DNA of 64,000 nucleotides from Candidatus Undinarchaeales archaeon (GCA_030753015.1 JASMDC010000002.1:1-64000), one strand, 5' to 3'; shown: positions 7,874 through 64,000, counted from the first letter of the stretch. Numbers and translations are program-made. The notes: generated by a model from the letters alone, not told the origin.

Positions 7874-8588
7874 TGGCGCACGAGCTCCCCTCCTTGCCCT
7901 GCACGAACCGGTCCGCGAAGTAGGCCTTCCCGGCGGATGGGCCGCATGCGATGACGCGATCGCCGAGCCAGGTGAATGGATAGACCAGGAACAGCAGGGT
8001 GAAGAACTCGTTCAGCTCCCGCTCGAGATCGCCATCGGGCTGGGTGAGCACCAGGAAAGCAGTGTCGGAGAGGCGCTGGGCGTAGGTGGCGTACCATGTA
8101 TCGTCGTGCTCGATGACGGTGGCGTGACTTACGAAGAGGCCCTTGAGCGCCAGGTCGAACGCCTCCAGGAATGCTCTCGGTGGCAATCCCGGGTCCGCTG
8201 CAGCCACGAGCTCGGGCAGGTGCGGATCAGTGGGCAGGTCGGGCCAGTCTATCCCGTCCAGCGCGGGCAGCTCGCCGCCCTCCTGTCGTCCAGCGAAGTC
8301 CACCAACCGCTCGAGCAGCGCGTCCCCGGAGGCCAGCGTCTCGGCAGTTGTCACGTCATCATATTGCAGGCGCTCCTTCGGGAACGTCCGGGCCCGCAGG
8401 AGCCGATGCTCGGACAGAGGGTGCAGGCTGCGCACAAGGCCGGTGTACATCGATGCCGGATCGAACCGAGCGTGCCGGTCGAAACCGCGCACGAGGGCGT
8501 ACAGCTCACCGGTGGCCAGACCACGGAAGGCCCGACGACATCTGGACCTGGCGTGCATGTGCCGCTGGGTGCGTCCGGCATGGCCCAT
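7848..8588 (-). CDS. Hypothetical protein
   Basis: Protein-like composition in the distal part of ORF 7848..8747. TTTATAT at 8613-8619 (-) places the start at ATG 8588. No family recognised. Confidence 0.55.
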   Translation of the reverse strand: MGHAGRTQRHMHARSRCRRAFRGLATGELYALVRGFDRHARFDPASMYTGLVRSLHPLSEHRLLRARTFPKERLQYDDVTTAETLASGDALLERLVDFAGRQEGGELPALDGIDWPDLPTDPHLPELVAAADPGLPPRAFLEAFDLALKGLFVSHATVIEHDDTWYATYAQRLSDTAFLVLTQPDGDLERELNEFFTLLFLVYPFTWLGDRVIACGPSAGKAYFADRFVQGKEGSSCAISPSSRRN

Positions 8589-48484: not shown

Positions 48485-50167
48485 ATGGCAACGCTGACGT
48501 TCGACCTGCCCGATCTGTTCAAGCTCATCGGCAAGAAGCTTCCCGTCGACGAGCTCTCGGCCATCCTCGCGGCCATGGGCGTGCCCGTGGAGGGCGTGGA
48601 GGGCGACGAGATCGAGGTCGAGGTGTTCCCCAACCGGCCCGACATGCTCTCGGTGGAGGGCGTCGCCCGGAACCTCAGGGGCATCCTTGGCATCGAGACG
48701 GGATTGCCTGCCACACCGCTCAAGGCATCGGACCTGGTCGTGGAGGTGGACCCGTCCACCAAGGACATCCGTCCCTTCATCGTATGCGGCATCGCCCGCA
48801 ACGTCACGTTCGACGATTCCTTCATCCGCTCGGTGATGCAGATCCAGGAGAAGCTGCACGCCACGCACTGCAGGAAGCGGCGCAAGGCGTCCATCGGAAT
48901 CTACGACCTGGATACCATCACAGGCCCAATACGATACGTCGCTCTGGAGCCGGGGATGATCGAGTTCGTACCCCTCTCCCTCGAGGGCGAGGAGGAGTAC
49001 GGCACTATGAGCGGTCGTGAGATCCTCATCAAGCACTCCAAGGGCCGTGACTACGCGTTCACCCTCGAGGACCTGCCACGCTTCCCCATCCTGGAGGACG
49101 CCAATGGTCAGGTGCTCTCCATGCCCCCCATCATCAACAGCGAGGAGACCCGCGTTTCCGAGGGGACGACGAACCTGTTCTTCGATGTCACCGGCACCGA
49201 TCTCAAGACCATTTGCCAAGTACTCAATATATTCTGCGCCCTGCTCACCGACCGGGGCGCTGATGTGGGAAGTGTCGAGGTGCGTTACCCGGACGCCATC
49301 ATGGTCACACCGGAGCTGGCGCCGTCCACCATGGAGGTCGATGTGGCGTATATCACGGGTCTGTTGGGCATCACCCTTTCCGACAAGGAAGTGGCCGAAC
49401 GCCTGGAGCGCATGCGCCTGGGCGTCAAGAAGAAGGGGAAGGGCCGTCTTGAGGTATCAGTCCCCGCCTTCCGTACAGATGTGATGCATCCCATGGACCT
49501 GGCGGAGGACGTGGCAATCGGCCACGGGTACGATAACTTCGAACCATCCCTCCCTGCCGTAGCGACCGTGGGGGCGCCCTTGCCGATTCGTGATGCTGGC
49601 GACGTGGTCCGAGATGCTCTGATAGGCCATGGATTCAGCGAGGTCATCACATTCGTGCTCACCAATCCCGATCGGCTCTTTACGAGGATGGGCGAGGAGC
49701 AACGGCCGGTAGCGACCATCGCCAATCCCAACTCCAGCGAGTTCACCGTGGTCCGCGATCGCCTTCTGCCCTCCCTTATCGAGACGCTGGAGCGGAACAA
49801 GCGCCACGGGTACCCCCAGCGCCTCTTCGAGGTGGGGGATATCGTGGTGCTCGATGATAAAGCGGACACCGGGACGCGGAACGTCCGGCGCCTTGACGGT
49901 GCCATGGCCGGAACGGACGCCACATTCGCTGCACTGAAGGCGGTAGTGGAGTCCCTGGGGCGGACCCTGGGACGGTCGATGACTTTCGAAGCGGTCGATG
50001 AGAAGGCCTTCATCCCCGGTCGAGCGGCGCGGGTGCTCGTGGAAGGTGCTCCCGCAGGAGTGTTCGGTGAAATCCATCCGGCGGTGCTGGAGTCCTTCGC
50101 TCTGGAGGTCCCTGTCGCTGCCCTTGAGTTCGACCTGGAGGTGCTCTACAATGGTACGCAAGCGTAA
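48485..50167 (+). CDS. pheT: Phenylalanine--tRNA ligase beta subunit
   Basis: PNRPDMLSVEG, QEKLH, SMPPIINS, RTDVMHPMDLAEDVAIGHGY, GEIHP. Confidence 0.97.
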   Translation: MATLTFDLPDLFKLIGKKLPVDELSAILAAMGVPVEGVEGDEIEVEVFPNRPDMLSVEGVARNLRGILGIETGLPATPLKASDLVVEVDPSTKDIRPFIVCGIARNVTFDDSFIRSVMQIQEKLHATHCRKRRKASIGIYDLDTITGPIRYVALEPGMIEFVPLSLEGEEEYGTMSGREILIKHSKGRDYAFTLEDLPRFPILEDANGQVLSMPPIINSEETRVSEGTTNLFFDVTGTDLKTICQVLNIFCALLTDRGADVGSVEVRYPDAIMVTPELAPSTMEVDVAYITGLLGITLSDKEVAERLERMRLGVKKKGKGRLEVSVPAFRTDVMHPMDLAEDVAIGHGYDNFEPSLPAVATVGAPLPIRDAGDVVRDALIGHGFSEVITFVLTNPDRLFTRMGEEQRPVATIANPNSSEFTVVRDRLLPSLIETLERNKRHGYPQRLFEVGDIVVLDDKADTGTRNVRRLDGAMAGTDATFAALKAVVESLGRTLGRSMTFEAVDEKAFIPGRAARVLVEGAPAGVFGEIHPAVLESFALEVPVAALEFDLEVLYNGTQA

Positions 50168-51257
50168 GATCAAGCGGTCCGCAGAGATCGCCCTGGAGAT
50201 GGTAGAGGAGCACGATGATCACAAGCGGAGCCATGGAACATCGGACAAGATGTTCGCGTTCTTCGTAGGAGGGATCATGATCCTCTCTGCTGTGGCCCTG
50301 GGATTCAATTACTTCAGCACGTTCGATAGCGGCGGTGGTAGTGGAGGCCGGGAAGGAGCGCCCGAAGGAGGCCGTTTCCTCTTCGACTGGGATCTGGTGC
50401 CCGGCGAACACTCACCCCAGCTCCGCACGGTCCTCGTGGATGTCTTCGGGGTCACCTTCGCTTCGGAGCCTTCAGTTTTGAAGAGCAAGGATGGTCTGAC
50501 GATCACCTATAGTGATGGGAGCACGACAAGCACCCTCACCCTGGAAGCGGACCAAGAGCTCGTCTCCCTGAACCTCCAGGACGGTACGGAGTACTTGTTC
50601 AAGCTCGTTGAGGACGGGGAGGGTCGTGCTGTGTATGCCACAAGCGAGCGGATCACGCGCTCTCAGGACTATGAGATCGACCTGACCAAGTTCCTTGATA
50701 CTGAAGGCGATTCGCCACCTGAGGAGGCCGAGGCCTATTTCGTGCCTGCGACGATCAAGGGTCGTCTCCCGAGCCTCGTGTTCTTCGGCACCATGGGTGA
50801 GAATACGACCCTCACGCGCCAGGAGGTCATCGTGCGGGTACGTGGTGTGAGGGGTGTTGCCAACGCTACTGAGGCACCTGCCGAGAAGGAGGAGGTCCTT
50901 CATCTCCAGCTCTTCCTCGACCTCGAACATATCCTGGACCAGAACCTCACTGCGAAGCTCGCGGGACAGTTGGAAGTTCTCGGAAAAGAGCTTGCTCTCG
51001 AGACACCAGCAGTATACCAGCCATCGTTCGCTGAGCTGGAAACCGACAAGGTGAACATGACCGTGGGCGGAGAGGGCAAGGTGATCACCTTACGAAACAA
51101 GCTCATCTACAGCATGCTCACACCACCGGTCGAGGAGAACGCTACCGTGCAGCTCATGCTCCGGGGTAAGGTCGTGGGGAGTCGCCCGCACATCCTCACC
51201 GACGGCCGAGAGGACATCATGGGTTTCCAGCAGGCATTCACCCTCTCGCTCGGTTGA
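50151..51257 (+). CDS. Membrane-anchored hypothetical protein
   Basis: Basic N-terminus, one TM (FAFFVGGIMILSAVALGF); overlaps the pheT stop. Confidence 0.75.
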   Translation: MVRKRKIKRSAEIALEMVEEHDDHKRSHGTSDKMFAFFVGGIMILSAVALGFNYFSTFDSGGGSGGREGAPEGGRFLFDWDLVPGEHSPQLRTVLVDVFGVTFASEPSVLKSKDGLTITYSDGSTTSTLTLEADQELVSLNLQDGTEYLFKLVEDGEGRAVYATSERITRSQDYEIDLTKFLDTEGDSPPEEAEAYFVPATIKGRLPSLVFFGTMGENTTLTRQEVIVRVRGVRGVANATEAPAEKEEVLHLQLFLDLEHILDQNLTAKLAGQLEVLGKELALETPAVYQPSFAELETDKVNMTVGGEGKVITLRNKLIYSMLTPPVEENATVQLMLRGKVVGSRPHILTDGREDIMGFQQAFTLSLG

Positions 51258-51329
51258 CGGCCCCTCCATCTGGGAAAGGTATAAATAGCGCCGAGTGAGC
51301 GAAACCCCGGCAGTAGGGGACTGTCATCT

Positions 51330-52397
51330 GTGATCCTTAACGAGGGGCATTCCGTTGGGCTCGAGAAGGAGTTCTACGTCGTCGGCGCCGACAACAACAC
51401 TTACGAACAGGCCATCGTGAAGGACAGCGTAATCCCCCGCATGAAGGCGGAGCTGGGAGCCTACGACGAGTCCTGGGGTCCAAAGTGCTACATCGACGTC
51501 ACGGGTCCCCTTGAGGTCGTCACACGGCCTTGCTCGGACCTGCGCCAGCTCTCCGATGATATTACCACGGCCTACCGCATCGCGCAGGAGGAATCCGACG
51601 ACCGAGGCCTCTACACACTGGGTATGGGCTCACGTCCAGGCAAGCCCAGCGACCAGGCAGGGCTCCACGTGCACGTGGGCTTCAAGGACGAGGCCGAGGC
51701 CGAGTACGTGTTCAACGAGCTACAGAAGCACGTACCGGACATCATGGCCCTTTCGGCCAACTCACCGTCGCGGTTCGGAGGGGTTAAGGACACGCGAGCG
51801 AGTGGCGGGTACTACGGTCACAAGTTCTCTCCGTACTCTGACACGGGCCGCACCTCGGTCATCTACAAGCGTAGCAACACCCTGGAGGTGCGGTGCATGG
51901 ACTCCCAGGGGACGCCGGAGGAGGACGTGGCCATCGCCGCGTACATATTCGGTATCGCCGAGAAGGCCAAGGAGGACCACGCTAACGGTGTCGAACAGGA
52001 TACTGTCGGGAATGAGGGGCCCAAGAACTTCAAGCACGCTGTCAAGAAGGGCATGGAGGCCACCTTCAAGATCGATGACGAGAAGGTCCCGGCGTACCGC
52101 GTGGTCGAGGACACCTTCGTCGACATCCGCCACTACCTGGAGCGGTACGACTGCCCCGATGAGGTCATGGACGTCCTTGAGGGGAAGGTCAAGGAACGTC
52201 GCTCGGGGGCTGACGACATCCTGGACATCTACCACGAGACCGGCTATAGCAGCATATGGACCGGGATTAAGGACTTCTTCACGCTTCACCGGGGCCACGA
52301 CGAACTCTACGATCGGCTCGCACATAGAGGGCGTAGCGATGACGAGACCACCGTCGATGTCCCAGATGCAGACCTGCTACTCGCAAGAGCCGCATAA
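51330..52397 (+). CDS. Glutamate-cysteine ligase family 2 (YbdK-like carboxylate-amine ligase), paralog 1
   Basis: SVGLEKEFYVV, LEVVTRPC, AGLHVHVG, ALSANSP, TLEVRCMD; own TATAAATA at 51280-51287. Confidence 0.85.
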   Translation: MILNEGHSVGLEKEFYVVGADNNTYEQAIVKDSVIPRMKAELGAYDESWGPKCYIDVTGPLEVVTRPCSDLRQLSDDITTAYRIAQEESDDRGLYTLGMGSRPGKPSDQAGLHVHVGFKDEAEAEYVFNELQKHVPDIMALSANSPSRFGGVKDTRASGGYYGHKFSPYSDTGRTSVIYKRSNTLEVRCMDSQGTPEEDVAIAAYIFGIAEKAKEDHANGVEQDTVGNEGPKNFKHAVKKGMEATFKIDDEKVPAYRVVEDTFVDIRHYLERYDCPDEVMDVLEGKVKERRSGADDILDIYHETGYSSIWTGIKDFFTLHRGHDELYDRLAHRGRSDDETTVDVPDADLLLARAA

Positions 52398-52503
52398 TAC
52401 GGCCCATTGTTGCGTTCTATTGTAGTATGGAATGGACTATTTCGCGACCGTTATAAGAAATGTATAAATACCACATCGTGCGCCGCCCCCGCACAGTAAC
52501 GAC

Positions 52504-53625
52504 ATGACAATCGTCAACGAAGGTCATTCGGTTGGGCTCGAGAAAGAGTTCTATGTTGTGGACGGGAGCAACCAGACCTACCAACAGTACACTATCGATA
52601 CAATCGTCAAGGAACGGATGCAAAATGAGATGAAAGCATACGATTCCGATGTAGGACCCAAGTGCTATGTCGATGCATCCGGTCCGTTTGAGATCACGAC
52701 CCGTCCGTGTACAGACCTTCAGCAACTTTCCGATGATATCACAACGACCTACAGGTTCGCCAAAGAAGAGTCGGAGAAACAAGGTCTCTATGCTCTCGGA
52801 ATGGGCGGACGGCCCGGAGCTCCAGACGATGCGGCAGGGCTGCACGTGCATGTCGGTTATGCGAATGAGGGCGAAGCCGACTACGTGTTCCACGAGCTCC
52901 AGAAGCACGTACCGGACATCATCGCGCTCTCGGCCAACTCACCGTCACGGGACGGGATGGTCAAATGCCTGCGGCAGTACGGCAATCCGATAAAGCACCT
53001 CTTCGACTTCCTGGGTGCAGGAGATACGCTCTTCTACGGTCATACGTTCTCACCGTTCGAGAAGACGGGCCGTTCCTCTGTCATCTACAAACGGGACGAC
53101 TCGAACACCGTCGAGGTCCGCTGCATGGACACCCAGGGAACCCCCGAGGAGGACACGGCCGTCGCAGCCTACATTTTCGGCATCGCCGAGAAGGCGAAAG
53201 AGGACTTCAATAACGGTGTTGAACAGGTGGGTATCGGTAAAGAGGAGAAACGCAACTTCAAGCGTGCGGTCCGTAAGGGGATGGAGGCGACCTTCAGAGT
53301 GGATGGGAAGAAGGTGCCAGTATCCCAGGTCGTCGCAGCGACACTCAAGGAGATCCAACCTTACCTGGAGCAGTACGATTGTCCTGATGAGGTCATCGAT
53401 GTGCTCAATGAGCGCGTCGCAACCAAACGCTGCGGTGCTGATGACATAATGGACATCTATCGCGAGGAGGGGGTCGGCGGCTTCTGGGGCAGTCTCACAA
53501 GACCGTTCCTTCTCTCGTCCAAGCGGGAAAGGCTCATCAAGCATCTCGGCTACCGCGACCGGTTCGAGGAAGAGCAGGAAAGACAAGATGATGATCCCTC
53601 TTCCATGGTAGCTTCTCCGACGTAA
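52504..53625 (+). CDS. GCS2/YbdK-like ligase, paralog 2
   Basis: Same motifs (GLEKEF, FEITTRPC, GLHVHVG, SANSP, TVEVRCMD); TATAAATA at 52463-52470. Confidence 0.85.
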   Translation: MTIVNEGHSVGLEKEFYVVDGSNQTYQQYTIDTIVKERMQNEMKAYDSDVGPKCYVDASGPFEITTRPCTDLQQLSDDITTTYRFAKEESEKQGLYALGMGGRPGAPDDAAGLHVHVGYANEGEADYVFHELQKHVPDIIALSANSPSRDGMVKCLRQYGNPIKHLFDFLGAGDTLFYGHTFSPFEKTGRSSVIYKRDDSNTVEVRCMDTQGTPEEDTAVAAYIFGIAEKAKEDFNNGVEQVGIGKEEKRNFKRAVRKGMEATFRVDGKKVPVSQVVAATLKEIQPYLEQYDCPDEVIDVLNERVATKRCGADDIMDIYREEGVGGFWGSLTRPFLLSSKRERLIKHLGYRDRFEEEQERQDDDPSSMVASPT

Positions 53626-53711
53626 AGGACGTCCGCTGCCCTTTTTTCGTAATGTTTATATAGGACCGGGCCCGCAACCACTTGCGGGTAACAACAGGGG
53701 AAACGGGTACT

Positions 53712-54833
53712 ATGGAGGATTTCCTAGAAACAGGCCATAGTGTAGGTCTTGAAAAGGAGTTCTACGTCGTCGACGGGAACAACGGGATGACCAACGACAC
53801 CTACAATCTGGTGCACGACATCGGCGATCGTATGGAAAAAGAACTGGGGGCCTATGACAGCAACTGGGGCCCGAAGTGCTATGAGGACCTCTCCGGCCCT
53901 CTGGAGGTCACCACCCGCCCCTGCAAGGATTTGCGCCAGCTGACCAAGGACATCACGACGTCATATAAGATCGCCCAGGAGGAAGCAGAGAATAACGGCC
54001 TCTACGCTCTGGGGATGGGAAATCGACCAGGCAAGAACGACGACCATGCGGGACTTCACGTTCATGTGGGATTCAAGGACGAGGGGGAGGCGGAGTACGT
54101 GTTCCACGCTCTTCAGAAGCATGTCCCCGACATCATGGCGCTGTCCGCGAACTCGCCCACCAACTATGGCGCTTTCAAGGACATACGCCAGGTCGGTGGC
54201 CTCTTCACACAGCTGGTAGAGAACGTGCTCGCGGTGCCCACCCTCTGGGGGCACAATTTCAGCAAGTACGGCCATACGAGCCGCCGCTCTGTCATCTACA
54301 TGCGGGAAAACACCGTAGAAGTGCGGTGCATGGACTCGCAGGGATCGGGGGAAGAGGACGCGGCCATCGGCGCTTACATATTCGGTATCGCCGAGAAAGC
54401 CAAGGATGACTACGCCAACGGTGTCCCTATGGCGGAGGTCGGACGCTGGGAAGAGAAGAACTTCACACGCTCTCTTGTCAAGGGCATGGAAGCGACCTTC
54501 AAGGTAGACGGCGAGAAGGTCAAGGCCTATCAGGTCGTGGACGACACTTTCGAGGAGATCATGCCGTTTCTCAAGCAGTACAAGTGCCCCAAGAAGGTCC
54601 TCGACGTGCTCGAATCCAAGATAGAAGGCCGGCGCTCTGGCGCGGACGACATCCTCGATATCTACAGGGAGGAGCTCCCTCAGGGCTTCCTGGCGCGGCT
54701 CATCGCTCCATTCAGGCGAAAGGAAGGCCAGAAGGAACAGCTCATCAAACACCTTGCATACCGCGACGAGTTTAAGGAAGAGGTTGAGCTCGAGGATGCT
54801 TTGCCGTGGCAGCCTATGCTCGCAGCAGCATGA
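53712..54833 (+). CDS. GCS2/YbdK-like ligase, paralog 3
   Basis: Same motifs; start MEDFLETGHSVG; TTTATATA at 53655-53662. Confidence 0.85.
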   Translation: MEDFLETGHSVGLEKEFYVVDGNNGMTNDTYNLVHDIGDRMEKELGAYDSNWGPKCYEDLSGPLEVTTRPCKDLRQLTKDITTSYKIAQEEAENNGLYALGMGNRPGKNDDHAGLHVHVGFKDEGEAEYVFHALQKHVPDIMALSANSPTNYGAFKDIRQVGGLFTQLVENVLAVPTLWGHNFSKYGHTSRRSVIYMRENTVEVRCMDSQGSGEEDAAIGAYIFGIAEKAKDDYANGVPMAEVGRWEEKNFTRSLVKGMEATFKVDGEKVKAYQVVDDTFEEIMPFLKQYKCPKKVLDVLESKIEGRRSGADDILDIYREELPQGFLARLIAPFRRKEGQKEQLIKHLAYRDEFKEEVELEDALPWQPMLAAA

Positions 54834-54947
54834 TCGGACCTCTCGAACGGTCGTTCCGAATCCTTCCGTCAACTGTTGGCTGAAACCGCACACCGCAAAC
54901 GCAACGTTTATATAGAGGCCAGAGCAGCACCACTCACCAGTAGCAAC

Positions 54948-56012
54948 ATGGAGATCGTGAACGAGGGTCACTCGGTAGGGCTCGAGAAGGAGTTCTACAT
55001 TGTGAACCACGGAAGCAACGGTAATCTTCACCTTGGGGCAGAGATGGGTATCGCATCCGGTATCGGGAACAGAATGCGTGAGGAGTTGGGTGCCTACGAT
55101 GACGAGGTAGGTCCCAAAGCTTACCTCGATGCATCCGGTCCCATGGAGGTCGTTACCCGTCCCTGCTCGGACCTTCACCAGCTCACAAATGATATCACGA
55201 CCGCCTACGACATCGCCCAGGAAGTAGTGGAAGCGCATGGTAAGTACGCCCTGGGGATGGGGACGCGACCTGGGGCGCCGGACGATAAGGCCGGGCTCCA
55301 CGTTCATGTGGGCTACGGCGACGAGGCAGAGGCGGAATACGTCTTCACCGTGCTCAAGCATCACGTGCCCGAGATCATGGCACTATCAGCGAACTCGCCC
55401 AACAAGGACGGCACTATCAAGGATATGCGTGCCGCCAACCGTTCGTACGGCCAACGCTATTCCCCCTTCAGTACGACCAGCAACGAATCCGTCATCAAGA
55501 AGCGTGACAATACCCTGGAGGTGCGGTGCATGGACACCCAGGGGACAGCAGAAGAGGACGCAGCGATCGCTGCATACATCCTAGGCATCGCCGAGAAGGC
55601 CAAGATCGATTACGCCAACGGAGAGGGCGTCTCGGACCGGTTCGGCGACGAAATCAAGAACCATGAGCAGGCGATAAAGGACGGTATGGCCGCGACGTTT
55701 ACGTACGGTGACGAGACGCGGTCGGTACAGGAAGTGGCCCAGGACACATTCGTCGCTATCCTTCCCTACCTTCGTCAATACGATTGTCCTGACGAAGTGG
55801 TGGGCATATTGGCTGACAAGATCGTCCGCGGACGCTCGGGTGCCGATGATATCCTAGACATCTACGCCGAGCACCGATCCCACGGCTTCATGCAAACACT
55901 TGCATCTCCTTTCACGTTCTGGAGCAGGAGGAAAGCGCTCTACAACGACCTTGCTCATCAGCGTGAGTGGAAGGCGCAGGAACGCGAGCGGGCGGACAGC
56001 GGAGGTGCCTGA
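54948..56012 (+). CDS. GCS2/YbdK-like ligase, paralog 4
   Basis: Same motifs; start MEIVNEGHSVG; TTTATATA at 54907-54914. Confidence 0.85.
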   Translation: MEIVNEGHSVGLEKEFYIVNHGSNGNLHLGAEMGIASGIGNRMREELGAYDDEVGPKAYLDASGPMEVVTRPCSDLHQLTNDITTAYDIAQEVVEAHGKYALGMGTRPGAPDDKAGLHVHVGYGDEAEAEYVFTVLKHHVPEIMALSANSPNKDGTIKDMRAANRSYGQRYSPFSTTSNESVIKKRDNTLEVRCMDTQGTAEEDAAIAAYILGIAEKAKIDYANGEGVSDRFGDEIKNHEQAIKDGMAATFTYGDETRSVQEVAQDTFVAILPYLRQYDCPDEVVGILADKIVRGRSGADDILDIYAEHRSHGFMQTLASPFTFWSRRKALYNDLAHQREWKAQERERADSGGA

Positions 56013-56015
56013 GAG

Positions 56016-57065
56016 ATGATCTCCGAAATCCTCAACGACGGCCATTCGGTGGGGCTGGAGAAGGAGTTCTACGTGGTGAACGGCCATGGTAGCAATCGCA
56101 GAGGCTACGAGATCGTCCCGGCCGTCGAGGAGCGCATGCGCGAGGAAATGGGCGTCTACGACTCGGTCGTCGGCCCGAAAGCATATAACGATCCCACCGG
56201 TCCTGTTGAAGTTACCACTCGTCCCTGCACGGACCTGCAACAGCTCACCGACGATGTCACGACCGCCTACCGCATCGCGCAGGAGGAGGCTGACGCACGT
56301 GGCTGGTACGCCCTCGGGATGGGCACCCGTCCTGGAAAGCCCTACGACATGGCAGGACTGCACGTCCACATCGGTTTCGCCGACAAGGAGGAGGCCCGCT
56401 ACGTGTTCCACGCACTCCAGGCGCACGTTCCGGACATCATGGCACTGTCGACCAATTCTCCATCGAATGATGGCAAGGTCAAGGACATACGCATGGACGC
56501 ACGCGGCCTAGATGGCCTCTTCATGATCAGGTTCGGTCACCAGTTCGATCCGTTCGAAGACACATCACGCGACTCGGTCATCTACGTACGCGAGAACACC
56601 CTGGAGCTGAGATGCATGGATAGCCAGGGGAGCGCCGTGGAGGACGCAGCCATCGCCGCCTACATCCTCGGTATCGCCGAGAAGGCCAAGGAGGACTATA
56701 CCAACAATGCCTCCATACCGGACGTGCCAGCAGAAGGGCCCGAGAACTTCCAGAAGGCCATCGAGGACGGGATGACCGCGACGTTCACCCACGGGGGCAC
56801 GGAGATCCCTGCGCACCAGGTCGTGGCCGATACGCTCGCTGAGGTCAGACCATACCTGGAGCAATATAATTGCCCTGAGAGCGTCATAGCCTCTCTGGAG
56901 GACAAGGTCGAGAACAAGCGGTCCGGAGCCGACGATATCCTCGACATCTACCAGGAGACGGCACCCAAAGGATTCAAGGAGCGTGTTGGCGCGTTCTTCC
57001 ACCCGTGGCGCACGAAGGAGCGGCTCATCGACCGGCTCTCCCATCGGGACGGCGGGGGGTGCTGA
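56016..57065 (+). CDS. GCS2/YbdK-like ligase, paralog 5
   Basis: Same motifs; GGAGGTG RBS inside the end of paralog 4. Confidence 0.85.
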   Translation: MISEILNDGHSVGLEKEFYVVNGHGSNRRGYEIVPAVEERMREEMGVYDSVVGPKAYNDPTGPVEVTTRPCTDLQQLTDDVTTAYRIAQEEADARGWYALGMGTRPGKPYDMAGLHVHIGFADKEEARYVFHALQAHVPDIMALSTNSPSNDGKVKDIRMDARGLDGLFMIRFGHQFDPFEDTSRDSVIYVRENTLELRCMDSQGSAVEDAAIAAYILGIAEKAKEDYTNNASIPDVPAEGPENFQKAIEDGMTATFTHGGTEIPAHQVVADTLAEVRPYLEQYNCPESVIASLEDKVENKRSGADDILDIYQETAPKGFKERVGAFFHPWRTKERLIDRLSHRDGGGC

Positions 57066-57069
57066 GAGA

Positions 57070-58140
57070 ATGGCCGAGATCCTTAACGAAGGCCACTCGG
57101 TGGGGCTGGAAAAGGAGTTCTACGTCGTTGATGGTACGGGGAGCACGTACCGTCAGTCGATCCTCGAGGGCCACATCGTGGACAGGATGCAGGCGGAGAT
57201 GGACGCCTACGACGTCAGTGTCGGCCCCAAGTGCTACGAGGACGGTTCGGGTCCACTGGAGGTCGTTACACGGCCCTGCACGAATCTACAACAGCTCACC
57301 GACGACGTCACCACGGCCTACCGCATCGCCCAAGAGGAGGCCGATACTCTCAACTGCTACGCCCTGGGAATGGGTATCCGTCCCGGCCAGTCTAAAGATA
57401 AAGCAGGCCTTCATGTCCACGTCGGATATGCCGATGAGGGGGAGGCGCGTCATGTCTTCTACACGCTCCAGCGCCATGTACCGGACATCCTGGCGCTCTC
57501 GGCCAACTCCCCGATCCGGAGCGGGAAGGTCAAGGACGTCCGTCTGGTCAAGGGCTCTTACGGCCACGAGATCTCGCCCTACTCTAGCACATCCAACAGT
57601 TCTGTGATCCAGAAGCGATCCGGGACCATCGAGGTGCGGTGCATGGACAGCCAGGGATCGGGCGAGGAGGACGCGGCCATCGCCGCGTACATATTCGGGA
57701 TCGCCGAGAAGGCCAAGGATGAGTACCATGGACTCGACGAGGTACCTCCCGAGGCGGATGTCATGTACGATGTCAGCAGCTCGTACGAGGTATTGCAGAA
57801 AGAGCTGGTGAAGAACAGGGACAGGGCCATCAAGCAGGGCATGACAGCCGTTTTCAAGACTGACGGTGAAGAGGTGCCAGCGTATCAGGTAGCAGCCGAC
57901 ACCCTTGAGGCGATCAAACCTTTCCTTGAACGCTACGACTGTCCCGCGGACGTCCTTGCCATCCTTGAGGACAAGGTGGAGCGCCGTCGATCGGGAGCGG
58001 ACGACGTGCTGGACATCTACCGCGAAGTAGAGCAAGAGAAGGGACTGGACACGTGGTGGCAGGGAGTGAAGCGGTTCTTCCGCAAAGACGACGGCCTGTT
58101 CGGGCCCGACCTGTACGACCGCATCGCTCACCGCGATTAG
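57070..58140 (+). CDS. GCS2/YbdK-like ligase, paralog 6
   Basis: Same motifs; start MAEILNEGHSVG, 4 nt after the paralog 5 stop. Confidence 0.85.
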   Translation: MAEILNEGHSVGLEKEFYVVDGTGSTYRQSILEGHIVDRMQAEMDAYDVSVGPKCYEDGSGPLEVVTRPCTNLQQLTDDVTTAYRIAQEEADTLNCYALGMGIRPGQSKDKAGLHVHVGYADEGEARHVFYTLQRHVPDILALSANSPIRSGKVKDVRLVKGSYGHEISPYSSTSNSSVIQKRSGTIEVRCMDSQGSGEEDAAIAAYIFGIAEKAKDEYHGLDEVPPEADVMYDVSSSYEVLQKELVKNRDRAIKQGMTAVFKTDGEEVPAYQVAADTLEAIKPFLERYDCPADVLAILEDKVERRRSGADDVLDIYREVEQEKGLDTWWQGVKRFFRKDDGLFGPDLYDRIAHRD

Positions 58141-58163
58141 GTACCTTTCACACCCTCGCTTGC

Positions 58164-58186
58164 CCGCAAGGGAACGTTTATTAAGC
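58164..58186 (+). promoter_or_regulatory. BRE/TATA-like promoter of nitrilase paralog 1
   Basis: ccgcaagggaacgtttattaagc; 21/23 identical to 59020-59042. Confidence 0.65.
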
Positions 58187-58223
58187 ATCCCTAAGATGTC
58201 GTGGATTAGGAGCGTAGTGATCG

Positions 58224-58982
58224 ATGTACGAGCTCGAGCCTGGTGATGAACGGCCAGACCACATCACGGTAGGCCTCATCGATGCCGATGTCCCGTTCAC
58301 CAGCAGCGATACCCGGGATGAGACCGTCATGGACCACTATCAGGATGCCATCGGAGCGGCCTTGGAGGCCGAGCCCGACATCCTTGTTGGTGCTGAGTAC
58401 GTATTCTTCCCCTATCAGCCACTCACCCGCGAGGAGCGGGACGAACGGTTCAACGTGATGCGTCAGCTATCGACGGAGCATCCGGACACCCTTCTCATGC
58501 CCGGTACCTACATCTGGCAGGAGCAGGGACATCTGCACAATACACTACCTGTGTTCCACAGGGGTGAGCTGGTGTTCACCTATGAGAAGCAGAATCCGGC
58601 TAATGCCGAGCGCTGGATGGAGAGCGACCATAACTTGGCATACACTGCCGAGAAGAGCGAGGGAGTTCTCGAGTACCAGGGCCTTTCCGTGGGGATGGAG
58701 ATCTGCTACGACCATACGGCACACACACTGCGGGACAAGGGTGTCAGGGACCTCGATCTTCAGGTGTTGGTAGCCAACGGCAAGGATTTCATCGACACGG
58801 CCACCATGGTAAGAGAAGGAGGGTACCATCTTCGCGTCGATGGCAGCGACAGCTCTTCGTACGATAGCGTCGAAGTGCACAAGTGTGTCGGTCCTTACAA
58901 GTACACGACCGTCGGACCTGAACGTATGAGCGAGCTCCCTCATGACATGAAGCTCAACCTCTACGAGCTGGACATGGCGTGA
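58224..58982 (+). CDS. Nitrilase/carbon-nitrogen hydrolase superfamily protein, paralog 1
   Basis: Glu-Lys-Cys triad context: DILVGAEY, LLMPGT, HNT, YEKQN, GMEICYDH. Confidence 0.82.
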   Translation: MYELEPGDERPDHITVGLIDADVPFTSSDTRDETVMDHYQDAIGAALEAEPDILVGAEYVFFPYQPLTREERDERFNVMRQLSTEHPDTLLMPGTYIWQEQGHLHNTLPVFHRGELVFTYEKQNPANAERWMESDHNLAYTAEKSEGVLEYQGLSVGMEICYDHTAHTLRDKGVRDLDLQVLVANGKDFIDTATMVREGGYHLRVDGSDSSSYDSVEVHKCVGPYKYTTVGPERMSELPHDMKLNLYELDMA

Positions 58983-59019
58983 TATGCGCCAGGTCCCCCC
59001 GATAGCACGGGCTAACGGT

Positions 59020-59042
59020 CCGCAAGGGAAGGTTTATCAAGC
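59020..59042 (+). promoter_or_regulatory. BRE/TATA-like promoter of nitrilase paralog 2
   Basis: ccgcaagggaaggtttatcaagc, duplicate of 58164-58186. Confidence 0.65.
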
Positions 59043-59080
59043 GGACGTTGCGGCCCGTTCGTTGGAGGACGTGACGGACA

Positions 59081-59902
59081 GTGTACTCACTTGAAGATAC
59101 GACGAGCAATGATCGACCTGACCACATCACCGTCGGGCTCATCCAGGGCGACGTACCGTTCGACCGCTACAGTCCACGCGACGAGTCCTTCATGGACGCG
59201 TACCAGGACACGATCTCCACGGCCCTGGAGGCCAATCCGGACGTCCTCGTAGGCTCCGAGTACTCCTTCTTCCCCCACGTACCCCTCACTCGCGAGGAGA
59301 AGGACGAGCGACTTGAGCAGATGCGCGAGATCTCAGAGGAACACCCTGACACCCTCCTCCTACCGGGCACCTACCTCTGGCAGGAGGGCGGCAAGCTCCA
59401 CAATACCCTCCCCGTGTTCCACAAGGGCGAGATTGTCTACTCCTACGACAAGCAGAACTCGGCGAACGGGGAGAACTGGGTCGCCGAGCAGCATGGTCTT
59501 GAATATGAGGCGGAGAAGAGCCGCGGTGTGTTCGAGCACCGGGGGCTCTCCATGGGGCTGGAGATCTGCTACGATCACTCGTGCTACGAACTGTCGGGCA
59601 AGGATGTCGAGGACCTGGACCTGCAGTTCCTGGTAGCGAACGGGAAGAACTTCATCGAGAGCGCTGCAGTGGTCAGGTCCGGTGGCTACCACGTCCGCTG
59701 TGATGGCGACGAGGACGGGTACGGTGGCGTTGAGGTGAACCGGCGGGTCGGCAGCGATGAGTTCGACGAGGTGTCCACCGGGCAGGAACGTGACCTTCCC
59801 AACGACATGAAGCTGGACCTGTACGACCTGGACATGCGGCGGCCCGGATCCGGCGAGGATGGCTTCTCCGTGGCTGGTTTTATCTCCCGCATTCTCCACT
59901 GA
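59081..59902 (+). CDS. Nitrilase/carbon-nitrogen hydrolase superfamily protein, paralog 2
   Basis: DVLVGSEY, YDKQN, GLEICYDH; colinear with paralog 1, plus a C-terminal FSVAGFISRILH tail. Confidence 0.82.
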   Translation: MYSLEDTTSNDRPDHITVGLIQGDVPFDRYSPRDESFMDAYQDTISTALEANPDVLVGSEYSFFPHVPLTREEKDERLEQMREISEEHPDTLLLPGTYLWQEGGKLHNTLPVFHKGEIVYSYDKQNSANGENWVAEQHGLEYEAEKSRGVFEHRGLSMGLEICYDHSCYELSGKDVEDLDLQFLVANGKNFIESAAVVRSGGYHVRCDGDEDGYGGVEVNRRVGSDEFDEVSTGQERDLPNDMKLDLYDLDMRRPGSGEDGFSVAGFISRILH

Positions 59903-59949
59903 GCTGCCCGGCCCCAAGCCTTTTATTGTTGCTTTGTCCTACTATTTCG

Positions 59950-60234
59950 ATGGTCACACTGCACCGTATCATAGGCCTGATGCTTCTCCTCGCCCTTGTA
60001 GCGGGGTGCCTCTCATCCGGACCTTCCGGAGGGGCCTCCACAACGAACCTCCCATCATACTACCAGCAGCTTGCGGACCAATGCAAGGGCTCCAGCTGTT
60101 GCCTGTCCTCCGTTGATTCGATGTACAGGATGAACGCGACCCTATCTCCGCCCAACGGGTGTCCCCCGGGCACACAGGGGAACATGCTCAGATGTGAGGA
60201 CTCATATAAATGGTGCGAACCTGCGGCCCCGTAA
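59950..60234 (+). CDS. Small Cys-rich lipoprotein
   Basis: LLLALVAG|C lipobox, Gly/Ser linker, then a compact domain with six Cys (C-x4-CC...GCP...NMLRC...WC). Confidence 0.75.
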   Translation: MVTLHRIIGLMLLLALVAGCLSSGPSGGASTTNLPSYYQQLADQCKGSSCCLSSVDSMYRMNATLSPPNGCPPGTQGNMLRCEDSYKWCEPAAP

Positions 60235-60240
60235 GGGGAG

Positions 60241-61503
60241 TTATGTCTTGACCGGCACCGGCTGCCCGCCCGGCAGGTCCTCGGCCTTCCCCGTGTCCTG
60301 TACGTAGCTGTAGAGCGCCCCCTCAAGCTCCTCGACCGTGGCGACCTGTTCGAGCTCTTGGGACAGCTGCTTGGCCCGACGGTTCCAGAACGGCTCGTGC
60401 TGTTCGATGTACTCGCGCACGATACCGGCGATCTCCTGTACCGGGACCTCCTCCATCGGAGCGAAAAGCGACTCCATGGTGCCCGCCTTGATCGCACCGT
60501 CCTCGTCACCGGCGATGCCGTACCTGCCGGCCACGCGCTCGTAGGTGCGTAGGGACGAGTCCATCTTGCCGAAGGGCAGGTCGGAGCCGAAGAGGATGCG
60601 GCCCTCGTACTCCTGGTGCCGCGAAAGGATGATGTCAGTGAGGCCGAGGGTGTACTTGCCGACGTCCTCTGGCTTCTCCACCTCGTTGTCCTCCAGGGAG
60701 AAGGGCATGGTGATGGAGAGGTCGAGGTACACGTTCTCGTGGGATGCCGCGACATCGGCCGCCTGGGTCACTGCAGCGGTGCGTGCCTTCGCCGATACTA
60801 CCCGTGAGCTCCCGCCGCAGCCGGAGTGGCCGATGATGATGGTGGTGTCCGGGGCCTTCTCGGCGAGCTTGCCCATACGGTAGGGCTCGCACATGATCAC
60901 GTCCTCCGGATTGTCCTGGTCGATGAGGTCGGGACGGGCCTGGGAGTGGAGGAGCACGGGCATGCCCAGGGCACCTGCCACACGCGCCACGGTAGCGGAC
61001 TCGTCCGAGTCGGCGGCGAACTTCTGCGCCCGGGGATGGAGCTTGAGCCCCTCGGCGCCCTCCAGACGGCACCGCACGACCTCGTACACAGCAGCGTACG
61101 GTCCTTCCGATCCTGTGGTGCCGTTGGGGTCCACCCGACAGAACGGGTTGAACCGGCCTTCGTACTCGTTGGCTGCCCACAGCACACGGTCGTTTGCATA
61201 GTGGAATGGGATGAGGACACCGTTGGGATCCGGCACGTTCCGGTCGCCCTCGTTGAAGGGGAACACGTTACACTGGCTCTGCGGTCCGTAGCCCGCGTCC
61301 ATAGCCTCAATGATCTCCTCGGGTGTCAGGCTCCGCTGTGCCTTTTTCTCCCCGACATGGTCGTACCCTAGGCTGGCCTGGACCTCGGCCATGTTCTCCC
61401 ATGTGTACGGTGCGGTCAGTGTCTCGATGCCGTCCGGGGCGTCCCACCCCATGTGGACGTGACAGTCGAGGATCTCCCTGTCCGTGTCGCCGTACTCGAT
61501 CAT
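60241..61503 (-). CDS. Metal-dependent amidohydrolase (amidohydrolase-2 type TIM barrel)
   Basis: DCHVH, GLKLHP, VLLHS, IIGHSG, NVYLDLS, RILFGSDLPF. Confidence 0.9.
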   Translation of the reverse strand: MIEYGDTDREILDCHVHMGWDAPDGIETLTAPYTWENMAEVQASLGYDHVGEKKAQRSLTPEEIIEAMDAGYGPQSQCNVFPFNEGDRNVPDPNGVLIPFHYANDRVLWAANEYEGRFNPFCRVDPNGTTGSEGPYAAVYEVVRCRLEGAEGLKLHPRAQKFAADSDESATVARVAGALGMPVLLHSQARPDLIDQDNPEDVIMCEPYRMGKLAEKAPDTTIIIGHSGCGGSSRVVSAKARTAAVTQAADVAASHENVYLDLSITMPFSLEDNEVEKPEDVGKYTLGLTDIILSRHQEYEGRILFGSDLPFGKMDSSLRTYERVAGRYGIAGDEDGAIKAGTMESLFAPMEEVPVQEIAGIVREYIEQHEPFWNRRAKQLSQELEQVATVEELEGALYSYVQDTGKAEDLPGGQPVPVKT

Positions 61504-61505
61504 GA

Positions 61506-62792
61506 TTACACCAGATACTCCATATTGGTAGATTTCTCGATGACATAGGATGCCAGGTCCTCGCCGTCGTTCACGGCATCGATCTGGACGTCGGCGCCGG
61601 AGCGGCCACTGTACACGCGCGCTTCCAGACGCTCGCGTACATCGTCCGGAATCTTGAGGTCATCGAGGACCGGCTTGATCTTCTCGTATGTCTCCTTGAT
61701 AGCGTCCTTAGCTGCGACCTCTACATCCTGGCCGTCCTTGGAATAGGTGATCGTGCCGTCCATGCCACCGTAGCCCACCTCGTCGATGTTCTTCTTGAGG
61801 ACATCGTTGTCCATCGCGATATCGTACGCGGGGCGGTGATCGGCCAGCCATGTGTCCGATGCGTCCAGCTGTGAGCTGAGCTGGGCGTACTGCTGGTCGC
61901 CGTCGGTCTCCTTACCGAAGAACTTGCGGATGCCCCGGCCCATGGCCGAGAAGATACCGGCATGGTAGACCTGTTCCAGCTGATCCTGCAGGTCGTTGCG
62001 CTCATGCTCTTTGTTGGCGAGTTCGGTCCAGTCGTAGTTACCGCTGGCCATTTCCTTCTTGGCGAACTCAGCGATGCCCCATATGAACGCGGCCACCGCG
62101 ACGTCCTCCTCGGCAGTGAGCTGGGCGTCGGGGCAGCGCACCTCCACGGTCCCCTTGAGCCGGTCGGAGTCCTTCTCTCCGGCGATGACGACCCCGCGGC
62201 CGTCCCAGCGCTCGCGCTTGAAGCTCAGGACCTCGGAGTGGGCCCGGTCCTCGTCGCCGTACACCACCGGATCGTTCGGGATGGTGCGGCCGTACTGCGT
62301 ACCGCCCATATTGGTGGAGTATATGCGGGCGTCCTTGCACCACTTACCCAGTGTGCCCTTCTTTGGCGAGTTGGAGGCGAGGGCGATGATCTCGGGGAGG
62401 TGGGCCCGCAGGGCCTTGGTGACGAACAGCGCCTCACGGTCGTCGGCAGCGCCGACGTGGGTGTGCATGGCCATGTAGCCGCCCTTGTCCGGATGGCGTG
62501 CTGCGGTCATGATCTTGTAGCCGCGGCCGGTGGCCTCGTCACGTACCTTCGTGACCATCTCTTTCATTTCGGTGTTCAGGTCAGTTAGGTTTTCGTAGGG
62601 GTGCGAGTTGATCTCGATACCCCAAACGCTGAATCCGAGCGCTGACGGGTAGTCGTGGTTGATACGGTCGTCGCTGCACGCGTTCTCGATCGAAGTGCAG
62701 TCAACGGGATTGCCATTGGGATCGACGATGATGAACTCCTTCTCCATGCCGATGGTGTGGCCGTCGTTCAGCTTGCCCCACGACATGATCAT
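61506..62792 (-). CDS. GCS2/YbdK-like ligase, divergent paralog 7
   Basis: TIGMEKEFIIVD, IEINSHP, MHTHVG, ALASNSP, GTVEVRCPDAQ, EEDVAVAAFIWGIAE, GRSGAD. Confidence 0.85.
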   Translation of the reverse strand: MIMSWGKLNDGHTIGMEKEFIIVDPNGNPVDCTSIENACSDDRINHDYPSALGFSVWGIEINSHPYENLTDLNTEMKEMVTKVRDEATGRGYKIMTAARHPDKGGYMAMHTHVGAADDREALFVTKALRAHLPEIIALASNSPKKGTLGKWCKDARIYSTNMGGTQYGRTIPNDPVVYGDEDRAHSEVLSFKRERWDGRGVVIAGEKDSDRLKGTVEVRCPDAQLTAEEDVAVAAFIWGIAEFAKKEMASGNYDWTELANKEHERNDLQDQLEQVYHAGIFSAMGRGIRKFFGKETDGDQQYAQLSSQLDASDTWLADHRPAYDIAMDNDVLKKNIDEVGYGGMDGTITYSKDGQDVEVAAKDAIKETYEKIKPVLDDLKIPDDVRERLEARVYSGRSGADVQIDAVNDGEDLASYVIEKSTNMEYLV

Positions 62793-63781
62793 TCCCCTCC
62801 GTGGAACTCTTTCTCCAGCTCCACCGAATACTCGACGATCTGGCGCACTGCGTCCCTGCCATGGCCGGTGCTGCGCTCGAGATTGTAGAATCCACCAGGG
62901 GCGGAGTTAAGTTCCAGCACGATGTAGTCGACGTTACCGTCCTTATCGTATCGCTCCAGGATGTCCACACCGGAGAAGTGCAGGCCGTCACCCATGGCCT
63001 TCACGGCCTCGACCGCCAGCTCTGCGACCTTCTGGTATTCATTATCAGGGACCTTCTCTCCATGGCCACCGTTGTGGATGTTAGTGATCCAGTCGTTGTT
63101 GACACGATACATGGCGCCGATGCACTCGTCGCCCACCACGTATGCCCGGATGTCCCGAAAGCTCTGGTGCGGCCAGTACTTGAACACGTCCTCCTGGACG
63201 ATGTCCGTGCCCAGATTCACCTGCTTGAGCGCCTCTTCGGCGGTGTCCACCTTGCGGATGCCCTTGCCGCCGAAACCATTGGAGGGCTTGAGCACGTAGG
63301 GGCCCTCGACACGTTCGCAGAACTCACGGATATCATCGTAAGAATGAGGGATGACCGTCTCGGCCACGGGCACATCGGCCTGCTCCAGCAGCTGCTGGGT
63401 GCGCACCTTGCTCCCAGTGACCGGGTACATGTCCGGATCGTTGAGAACAAGAGTGCCGTTGGCCTCGAACTCGCGCAGGATGCCCGAGGGGGGCCCGGCC
63501 ATGAAGTTGATAATGACGTCGGGATCGCCGCCCAGCTCCTTGCGGATCTTCTGCTTGACGTGGCCGCCGCCGCTGTAGTGCTTGGGGAACTTCGCGTGCG
63601 CGCCGCGTACGCCGTCCATGGAGTTGACCGCTTCATCGAAGTACCGTCCCAAGGAGGAGTTCATGGAGTTGTCGATATTGTCATGATAGAGCACCTTGAT
63701 GGACTCGTCATCGAGTTCGAACCCGGTGAGCTTGTCCAACAGGTCGCGCCAACCGCTTATCGTGGCCACTTCCTGTGACAT
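62789..63781 (-). CDS. RimK/LysX-family ATP-grasp amide ligase
   Basis: VLKPSNGFGGKGI, IVQE, DIRAYVVG, AMYR, WITNIHNGG, GVDIL, VLELNSAPG. Start uncertain (ATG 63781; frame open to 63850). Overlaps the next gene by 4 nt. Confidence 0.9.
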   Translation of the reverse strand: MSQEVATISGWRDLLDKLTGFELDDESIKVLYHDNIDNSMNSSLGRYFDEAVNSMDGVRGAHAKFPKHYSGGGHVKQKIRKELGGDPDVIINFMAGPPSGILREFEANGTLVLNDPDMYPVTGSKVRTQQLLEQADVPVAETVIPHSYDDIREFCERVEGPYVLKPSNGFGGKGIRKVDTAEEALKQVNLGTDIVQEDVFKYWPHQSFRDIRAYVVGDECIGAMYRVNNDWITNIHNGGHGEKVPDNEYQKVAELAVEAVKAMGDGLHFSGVDILERYDKDGNVDYIVLELNSAPGGFYNLERSTGHGRDAVRQIVEYSVELEKEFHGGE

Positions 63782-64000
63782 CGATGAGCTGATGGGCACG
63801 TTAGTTTGCGCATAGGTATTCCCTATTCCTTTGGATGTAAAGAGCTGCACGTCCCGGTGTTTTTAAAGATTTCGAAACCGTGCGGTAGTAACACTTAATA
63901 TATCTCCCCCCGAAACACTGACGGCGGCCAATCCCGGCCATAGTCTTTTATATCTCGGCTTGGTCTTGAAAGGCCGTGCGCATCTCCATCGTCATACCGG

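Follow-up and report, generated by a model that had tools for sequence, protein, structure and literature searches.

Seven divergent GCS2-type ligase genes, six of them in tandem, beside nitrilase-like and PF04909 genes in a marine archaeal genus: a possible locus of diversified amide ligation and hydrolysis

To our knowledge, very few functions have been assigned to ligases of the GCS2 family (Pfam PF04107), which have the glutamine synthetase (GS) fold: they come down to gamma-Glu-Cys synthesis, with the role of YbdK unsettled; Lehmann et al. in 2004 are said to have found that its activity is gamma-Glu:Cys ligation. Here we analyse a 64,000-nt stretch of DNA from a Candidatus Undinarchaeales archaeon (the window, in which all coordinates are counted), where 12 genes at 51330-63850 include seven GCS2-like ligase genes, called GCS1 to GCS7 individually, together with two nitrilase-like genes (CNH1 and CNH2), a gene for a RimK-family ATP-grasp ligase and one for a PF04909 (Amidohydro_2) protein. 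The source genome is referred to as G000, and a second genome of the same genus as G001. Several described systems resemble this locus in part. In the PuuA/PuuD pathway, the Streptomyces GlnA2/GlnA3 and Haloferax GlnA-2 systems and naphthylamine glutamylation, paralogous GS-fold ligases take different amines and a deglutamylating hydrolase acts later, which is a like logic; their enzymes are glutamine-synthetase-like (Gln-synt_C) and not GCS2, and their pathways contain oxidation steps that are absent here. The predicted amidoligase systems (Iyer, Aravind; PMC2588565) place GS-fold ligases beside thiol peptidases or cyclotransferases, with glutathione-like peptide metabolites as predicted products, whereas in the present locus such ligases are accompanied by proteins of the nitrilase type and of PF04909. 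YbdK, haloarchaeal GshA, the GshA/GshB pair and the PafA/Dop pair are compared with the locus below.

Nine of the 12 genes lie on the + strand and three, convergent to them, on the - strand. The six tandem ligase genes are GCS1 (51330..52397, 355 amino acids (aa), a divergent YbdK/GCS2-type carboxylate-amine ligase), the GCS2 paralog (52504..53625, 373 aa), GCS3 (53712..54833, 373 aa), GCS4 (54948..56012, 354 aa), GCS5 (56016..57065, 349 aa) and GCS6 (57070..58140, 356 aa), with corrected starts for GCS3 (53712), GCS4 (54948) and GCS6 (57070). They are followed on the same strand by CNH1 (58224..58982, 252 aa), its 60% identical paralog CNH2 (59081..59902, 273 aa) and a small gene (59950..60234, 94 aa). 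On the - strand, operon B runs from the ATP-grasp gene (330-336 aa) through GCS7 (61506..62792, 428 aa, with a long insertion) to the PF04909 gene (60241..61503, 420 aa). The ATP-grasp gene occupies 62789..63781 if it starts at an ATG, or extends to 63799 if it starts at a GTG; the choice is confined to these two since the G001 orthologue has a stop codon further upstream. Operon A, on the + strand, ends at 60234 and operon B at 60241, and the word 'facing' used for them in the initial annotation thus means convergent. That annotation, made from the sequence, had proposed six tandem GCS2-like genes, two hydrolase genes with an E-K-C triad and a convergent group of ATP-grasp, GCS2 and PF04909 genes; its gene content and coordinates were borne out, with 11 of the 12 genes encoding enzymes that each score above the Pfam gathering threshold.

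All seven ligases were recognised by the GCS2 profile (cut-off 21 bits), the tandem six at 41.9-46.9 bits (42.7 for GCS1), with partial single-sequence matches (profile positions 124-166/175), and GCS7 at 36 bits. The tandem six are of the same size and mutually 55-62% identical, and are 33% identical to GCS7. A profile built from 32 sequences (the clade plus seven more distant GCS2 proteins, six of which are named as haloarchaeal GshA or carboxylate-amine ligases) matched Escherichia coli YbdK (1r8g) at E 5.6e-32 over profile positions 6-316, which is near full length, and plant GCL at only ~1.6e-4. An AlphaFold2 model of the GCS2 paralog (predicted local distance difference test score (pLDDT) 83, predicted template modelling score (pTM) 0.87) likewise had YbdK as its best Foldseek match (E 2.1e-15, template modelling (TM) scores 0.66/0.69), followed by plant GCL, PafA, Dop and glutamine synthetases. 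PafA and Dop, themselves a GS-fold ligase and a hydrolase, were matched at E 4e-10 to 2e-8 with TM-scores of 0.48-0.54, a lower similarity than that to YbdK.

Twenty-six columns were invariant in 32/32 sequences, among them (in the numbering of the 52504-53625 paralog) E13, E15, E63, H114, H116, N145-S146-P147, R157, T202, E204, R206, D209 and Q211. The conserved acidic and histidine metal ligands and the two arginines (E13, E15, E63, H114, H116, R157, E204, R206) are all kept, and the remaining invariant positions presumably also serve metal or phosphate binding. In the GS-fold literature, such positions are described as binding metal and phosphate and as including two active-site arginines, one in strand 5 and one in the loop before it (Iyer et al. 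2008, PMC2588565). Since the residues common with GshA are invariant, the ligases look catalytically competent. The array shares with YbdK and haloarchaeal GshA both the fold and the conserved metal- and phosphate-binding residues.

It differs from these enzymes in its distance from them and in its copy number, with seven copies, six of which are in tandem. Identity to haloarchaeal GshA is ~25%, and by profile alignment the family lacks ~25 residues that YbdK has before the HVHVG strand. Scores against the YbdK-family model TIGR02050 were 65.8-71.8 bits, short of the cut-off of 176.4, and those against the GshA equivalog models (NCBIfam NF0100xx) reached at most 72 bits against cut-offs of 332-437, so the seven ligases fall outside every curated NCBIfam family. 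Together with their separate branch in the tree described below, these figures uphold the expectation that the ligases would not nest among characterised GshA or YbdK. Elsewhere, G000 has two further, more divergent GCS2-like genes (contigs C29 and C23), two gamma-glutamyltranspeptidase genes and one canonical glutamine synthetase gene, and no GCS2 gene at the curated GshA cut-off; the gamma-glutamyltranspeptidases and the glutamine synthetase fit a gamma-glutamyl metabolism only loosely.

A maximum-likelihood tree of 52 rows, with long branches and an arbitrary root, resolved the six tandem genes as six orthogroups (100/100 support for each), each holding a G000 gene, a G001 gene and proteins from other assemblies. 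Collectively the six orthogroups formed a clade (82/91), with GCS7 and its G001 orthologue apart and haloarchaeal GshA distant. On this topology, the six paralogs are ancient, older than the speciation of G000 and G001. Fifty columns were group-specific, i.e. conserved within orthogroups with at least 3 states between them, and 10 of these fell in residues 161-200, a segment holding just 6 of 119 invariant columns. The loop after the invariant R157 carries inserts of 0, 16, 15, 0, 8 and 0 residues in groups 1-6, respectively, that of the GCS2 paralog being a 16-residue orthogroup-specific insert in the 158-176 loop. Because the paralogs differ most, indels included, in the loop after an invariant active-site arginine, they would differ in acceptor. 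This is the pattern that a diversified acceptor specificity predicts, provided that the loop lies at the pocket, as we infer.

Assembly error does not account for the array. A 605-kb contig of G001 carries the same 6+2+1 / 3 gene arrangement, both flanks included, and the segment 50000-64000 was matched by contigs of four further sequencing runs from four studies with 0-1 differing letters and no joints; one contig, of 4558 bases, spans 54955-59512, from GCS4 to CNH2. The stretch or part of it was present in 20 runs of 11 studies labelled as marine or seawater metagenomes, eight of these runs being candidates for its source; among all 23 runs listed, none was of RNA. All genes of the locus are intact, and all 12 are under purifying selection: ratios of non-synonymous to synonymous substitution rates (dN/dS) between G000 and G001 (Nei-Gojobori) were 0.06-0.15, namely 0.154, 0.145, 0.128, 0.087, 0.139 and 0.126 for GCS1 to GCS6, 0.119 and 0.133 for CNH1 and CNH2, 0.125 for the small gene, 0.058 for the PF04909 gene, 0.120 for GCS7 and 0.100 for the ATP-grasp gene. 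Amino acid identity between the two genomes was 76-88% for the array (84.6% for GCS1 and 76% for the GCS2 paralog), 85-89% for the nitrilase-like pair, 86% for the small protein, 89% for GCS7 (88.7%), 92% for the ATP-grasp protein and 95.5% for the PF04909 protein, compared with 94% for PheS/PheT. Synteny between G000 and G001 extends beyond the locus, through pheS/pheT to the left and SRP54/FtsY to the right.

Among 5.8 billion proteins, a word-indexed search picked out 160 ligase matches; close similarity (E<=5.9e-70) was limited to 21 of them, after which E rose to 2.4e-10. When 1.84 billion representatives were searched exhaustively with a profile, 965 matched at E<=1e-3 and 4 at E<=1e-30, the nearest representatives being mostly singleton metagenome proteins. 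In a sample of 401 archaeal genomes, close ligase matches were confined to two (G000 and G001), with remote ones in five others. With a ceiling of five scored candidates per genome, PF04107 was present in 25/401 of these genomes; those other than G000 and G001 comprised 22 with a single match and one with two, which agrees with the earlier view that so large an array is out of the ordinary. In the protein and 401-genome searches, close versions of the ligase, nitrilase-like and ATP-grasp families hardly occurred beyond this genus. On soil-type metagenome contigs (L018-L033), tblastn detected neither nitrilase-like nor ATP-grasp genes beside the distant GCS2 loci, and L027 alone had a PF04909 gene there. 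One further candidate, in genome G369, was set aside: a canonical GCS2 gene ~3 kb from an ATPgrasp_ST/7TM-transglutaminase gene was judged to belong to a different, already predicted system.

CNH1 and CNH2 are nitrilase-superfamily, amidase-like proteins, with 29.3 and 23.9 bits respectively against CN_hydrolase (PF00795, cut-off 23.2), the latter score being borderline. Residues E58, K122 and C161 are invariant in 8/8 aligned members, which cover five paralog types of the genome, and they aligned, weakly (E 0.021), with the triad of the nitrilase-type glutaminase domain of an NAD+ synthetase (5kha). A single-sequence PDB search with CNH1 returned nothing. The family is narrow, with 6 and later 9 proteins found. 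G000 has three more paralogs, two on contig C95 and one on contig C52. Those on C95 (104049-108214, - strand; L054 8050-12215) lie in tandem in an apparent operon, downstream of genes for an arginase-family protein and an M28 peptidase, and have no Pfam match by themselves. The fifth paralog, on C52 (L055 8568-10330, - strand), is 250 aa long, keeps the triad and adjoins, at the contig end, a Fic-domain gene whose translation contains masked letters.

In operon B, neighbouring genes overlap or directly adjoin one another, and the ATP-grasp stop codon overlaps the GCS7 start (translational coupling). The ATP-grasp protein scored 78.4 bits against Pfam RimK (cut-off 21). Among NCBIfam models, it came closest to CofF, MptN (132.3 bits against a cut-off of 350), the RimK family TIGR00768 (129.9 against 143.4, just missed) and LysX (111.6 against 275.6), and its PDB neighbours were an alpha-L-glutamate ligase, RimK and LysX (E 9e-18 to 5e-14). 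The nearest families (MptN, RimK, LysX and CofF) have in common that they attach L-glutamate, or an amino acid related to it, to a carboxylate. The pairing of a GS-fold ligase (GCS7) with a coupled RimK/GSH-S-like ATP-grasp protein does resemble GshA/GshB, as had been supposed, and to that extent the comparison stands. The ATP-grasp protein is nevertheless not a glutathione synthase by the models for that enzyme, which it failed to reach (48.2 bits against 272 and 43.4 against 299), being closer to MptN, RimK and LysX, and the operon differs from GshA/GshB also in having a PF04909 gene. ATP-grasp matches at E<=1e-25 occurred in 3/401 genomes. The PF04909 product, a protein of metal-dependent hydrolase/decarboxylase fold, scored 58 bits (cut-off 26.4), and HVH, LHP, GHSG and GSD motifs read in its translation match the HxH...H...D pattern, which we take to be the metal-binding pattern of Amidohydro_2. 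A single-sequence PDB search with this protein returned nothing. Searches of the ESM Atlas yielded no more than generic Amidohydro_2 or unnamed clusters.

Homologues of the PF04909 protein (E<=1e-8) were found in 15/401 genomes belonging to 8 genera. A GS-fold ligase gene lies adjacent to or within 3 kb of the homologue in three of these, namely the present genus, that of G023/G046 (where VWA proteins are also encoded) and a methanogen genus; no such ligase was seen near the homologue in the other five genera within the DNA examined. In the methanogens, 6/6 genomes (L060-L065) have a row of genes for a 483-aa GS-fold ligase, a 243-aa PF04909 protein, a 242-aa protein and the nickelochelatase CfbA. 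The methanogen PF04909 protein, encoded directly after the ligase in all six, is a clear homologue of that in the window (E 8e-31), whereas the methanogen ligase is related only remotely to GCS7 (pairwise E 0.002, profile E 1e-13 to 1e-22), and the operon is without an array, an ATP-grasp gene and nitrilase-like genes. The 242-aa protein had no NCBIfam or PDB match, and with ligase, PF04909 protein and 242-aa protein all below curated NCBIfam cut-offs, the function of this operon appears undescribed. On metagenome contig L027 (high GC), PF04909, GCS2 and Amidase genes stand beside an Orn/Lys/Arg decarboxylase gene. Conservation of the neighbourhood, which the initial annotation had proposed to check, is complete in G001 and was seen elsewhere only for the ligase-PF04909 pairing (two genera and one contig). 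This recurrent pairing, which in a methanogen genus stands beside cfbA, is a separate lead in its own right as an undescribed two-enzyme module. In G023 (contig C80; L049 3114-8977), the gene for the PF04909 homologue has a VWA-domain gene on each side and is oriented towards a 468-aa GCS2-like gene, with nucleotide-sugar genes next.

Boxes resembling the B recognition element (BRE) and TATA element were called in intergenic sequence by what we take to be the archaeal promoter consensus. On the + strand they precede GCS1 (51274..51287), the GCS2 paralog (52457-52470), GCS3 (53649-53662), GCS4 (54901-54914), CNH1 (58171-58184), CNH2 (59027-59040) and the small gene (59916-59928), i.e. seven genes, at 22-50 nt before the start codons, and all are conserved at the same places in G001. 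GCS4 leads a tightly packed GCS4-5-6 unit with gaps of 3-4 bp, and the widest intergenic gap is 114 bp. The initial annotation had put forward one machine that writes, extends and erases a modification. A diversified panel of ligases accompanied by hydrolases is retained from that proposal as our reading; integration of the parts goes beyond the evidence, and the separate boxes for GCS1, the GCS2 paralog, GCS3, GCS4(-5-6), CNH1, CNH2 and the small gene weigh against such integration.

We consider this diversified ligase panel with hydrolases the most economical reading of the locus. In full, and with a little less than an even chance in our estimate, it would be a cytoplasmic, vertically inherited and lineage-restricted metabolism of small-molecule amides, in which ligases with diversified acceptors are combined with hydrolases. 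All seven GS-fold ligases would phosphorylate a carboxylate at the expense of ATP and couple the resulting acyl-phosphate to an amine; analogy with GshA, YbdK, PafA and GS makes the gamma-carboxyl of glutamate the probable carboxylate. Acceptors would differ among the six tandem paralogs, and the two nitrilase-type E-K-C enzymes would hydrolyse such amides. Operon B would be an older, more conserved module in which the product of the ligase undergoes further glutamylation and/or conversion by the PF04909 enzyme, a metal-dependent one. The substrates, the direction (biosynthesis, or salvage and catabolism) and the coupling of array, nitrilase-like pair and operon B are at this point inferred only.

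Several observations weigh against this reading. The carboxylate could be other than glutamate. Adjacency within one genus, syntenic over the whole neighbourhood, is all that links the array with the nitrilase-like pair and with operon B, and the other three nitrilase-like copies adjoin an arginase-family gene and an M28 peptidase gene, or a Fic gene, and not ligases. The nitrilase-fold call itself rests on marginal Pfam scores, since the AlphaFold2 model of the nitrilase-like protein, from a 7-sequence alignment, had a pLDDT of 45.7. As regards PF04909, the pairing with a ligase occurs in only 3/8 of the genera with a homologue in the 401-genome sample, and among solved structures the methanogen homologue is closest to LigW, ACMSD, resorcylate/salicylate decarboxylases and the LigJ hydratase. 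As these are decarboxylases and hydratases and not amidases, C-N cleavage by the PF04909 protein is not established; the earlier assertion that 11/12 genes encode amide-forming or C-N-cleaving folds accordingly holds for the folds, and not for C-N cleavage in the case of this gene. Finally, no transporter, regulator, oxidoreductase or aminotransferase gene is present among the genes of the locus, so that a Puu-like catabolic route would need steps encoded elsewhere.

Two alternatives accept the same enzymes and differ in how they would be joined. The six ligases, GCS7 and the ATP-grasp enzyme might act in turn on one growing chain, in the manner of Mur ligases or GshA/GshB, giving a single peptide-like or pseudopeptide product independently of non-ribosomal peptide synthetases (NRPS), which the hydrolases would mature or recycle. 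Such a route would account for a locus made up of ligases, hydrolases and little else, as amino-acid substrates need no further enzymes, and it is consistent with the packing of GCS4-5-6 and with the retention of all six orthogroups in G000 and G001, members of several groups also lying on contigs of equal length in two further assemblies. We nonetheless regard it as unlikely, given that the substrates along a growing chain would differ strongly whereas the paralogs are of equal size and close in sequence, that 4/6 ligases have their own promoter-like box, and that the locus has no carrier or scaffold gene. At the other extreme, the array, the nitrilase-like pair and operon B may be independent metabolic units that are neighbours through vertical inheritance of the region. 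The extension of synteny into pheS/pheT and SRP54/FtsY, the separate boxes, the other genomic contexts of the nitrilase-like family and the far higher conservation of operon B (89-95% aa identity) than of the array (76-88%) all speak for this. It is, however, harder to reconcile with GCS7 being, a few singletons apart, the closest relative of the array among 1.84 billion representatives, and with the occurrence elsewhere of a ligase, a PF04909 protein and a third amidase-type gene together (an amidase-signature enzyme on L027, the 242-aa protein in methanogens), and we judge it about as unlikely as the stepwise route.

The diversified small-molecule panel was also weighed against readings in which the targets are proteins or competitors. 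If the ligases placed glutamate or a peptide on protein lysines as PafA does, and the hydrolases removed it as Dop does, the structural matches to PafA and Dop would be explained, and the absence of ~25 residues ahead of the HVHVG strand might leave the active site more open. Yet those matches fall below YbdK in TM-score (0.48-0.54 against 0.66). Intergenic gaps of at most 114 bp leave no room for an unannotated Pup-like tag gene, and the sole small protein of the locus bears an N-terminus of the secretion type. Around the locus lie PheRS, GT2, pseudouridine synthase, SRP54 and FtsY genes, with no proteasome or chaperone gene nearby. We consider protein tagging of this kind improbable, and the suggestion of peptide or protein-lysine tagging in the initial annotation found no support. 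A broader variant has an outside chance: the ligase cassette would write varied gamma-glutamyl or isopeptide marks on proteins or on a shared scaffold (the cell envelope, or the Cys-rich lipoprotein before export), reversibly and independently of NRPS, with the nitrilase-type enzymes as erasers. If this were true, it would represent a kind of reversible covalent modification not previously seen in archaea and without relation to pupylation or SAMPylation. An effector or defence arsenal, raised earlier as the alternative, is highly improbable and likewise gained no support, even though tandem paralog expansion and an array evolving faster than housekeeping genes (76-88% against 94% aa identity) are what a conflict system might show. 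PADLOC assigned 0 families to 10/10 locus proteins; the ligases, read by eye, start straight at the conserved catalytic N-terminus with no extra segment and no apparent signal peptide; each paralog has a 1:1 orthologue, with dN/dS of 0.09-0.15 in the array; and the locus sits amid housekeeping genes, with no mobile-element gene seen nearby.

Word searches of the open-access literature, which left supplements and the 2009 amidoligase survey outside their scope, yielded no paper describing such an array. The folds are known; the clade, its sixfold ancient tandem expansion, the lineage-specific nitrilase-like partners and the recurrent ligase-PF04909 pairing were not found in the searched databases and open-access papers. 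An uncurated ligase clade kept as six paralogs and a seventh through speciation in an abundant uncultured marine archaeon points to at least several unmapped amide-forming reactions. Should the acceptors be environmental amines or amino acids, the locus would be a GCS2-based counterpart of glutamine-synthetase-like gamma-glutamylation, with relevance to the use of marine organic nitrogen, while enzymes acting in sequence would constitute a new ribosome- and NRPS-independent route to peptides.

The small gene that closes operon A encodes a secreted, Cys-rich, lipoprotein-like product with an LVAGC lipobox-like motif and 8 Cys, as read from the translation and the G001 orthologue; it had no Pfam, NCBIfam or PADLOC match. 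The G001 orthologue (L014 about 8000-8503, - strand) has a second copy of the Cys-rich segment, and the G000 protein one. To the left, the locus is flanked by pheS/pheT (46991-50167) and then by a gene for a membrane-anchored protein (50151-51257, + strand), whose start overlaps the pheT stop by 17 nt; its 368-aa product has one N-terminal hydrophobic segment, belongs to no Pfam or NCBIfam family and is 85-88% identical in G001. To the right lie GT2, pseudouridine synthase, SRP54, FtsY, prefoldin and eIF6 genes. No Rfam family reached its gathering score in 49500-64000.

Some of the close ligase proteins bear the database label Methanopyri archaeon. G000 measures 3.85 Mb (98.9% complete, 5% contamination) and G001 3.6 Mb, compared with 0.6-1.2 Mb for 15/15 sample genomes of the same class; these are big genomes in a class of very small ones, or else the classification is doubtful. 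Elsewhere in the window, a single open reading frame of 8347 aa occupies 16585-41628 (- strand), with positive GC skew throughout; its first and last 2500 residues each had no Pfam match at E<=1e-4. The G+C content is 0.55-0.61 over 52000-60000 against 0.60-0.65 in most of the window, with an AT skew of +0.15.

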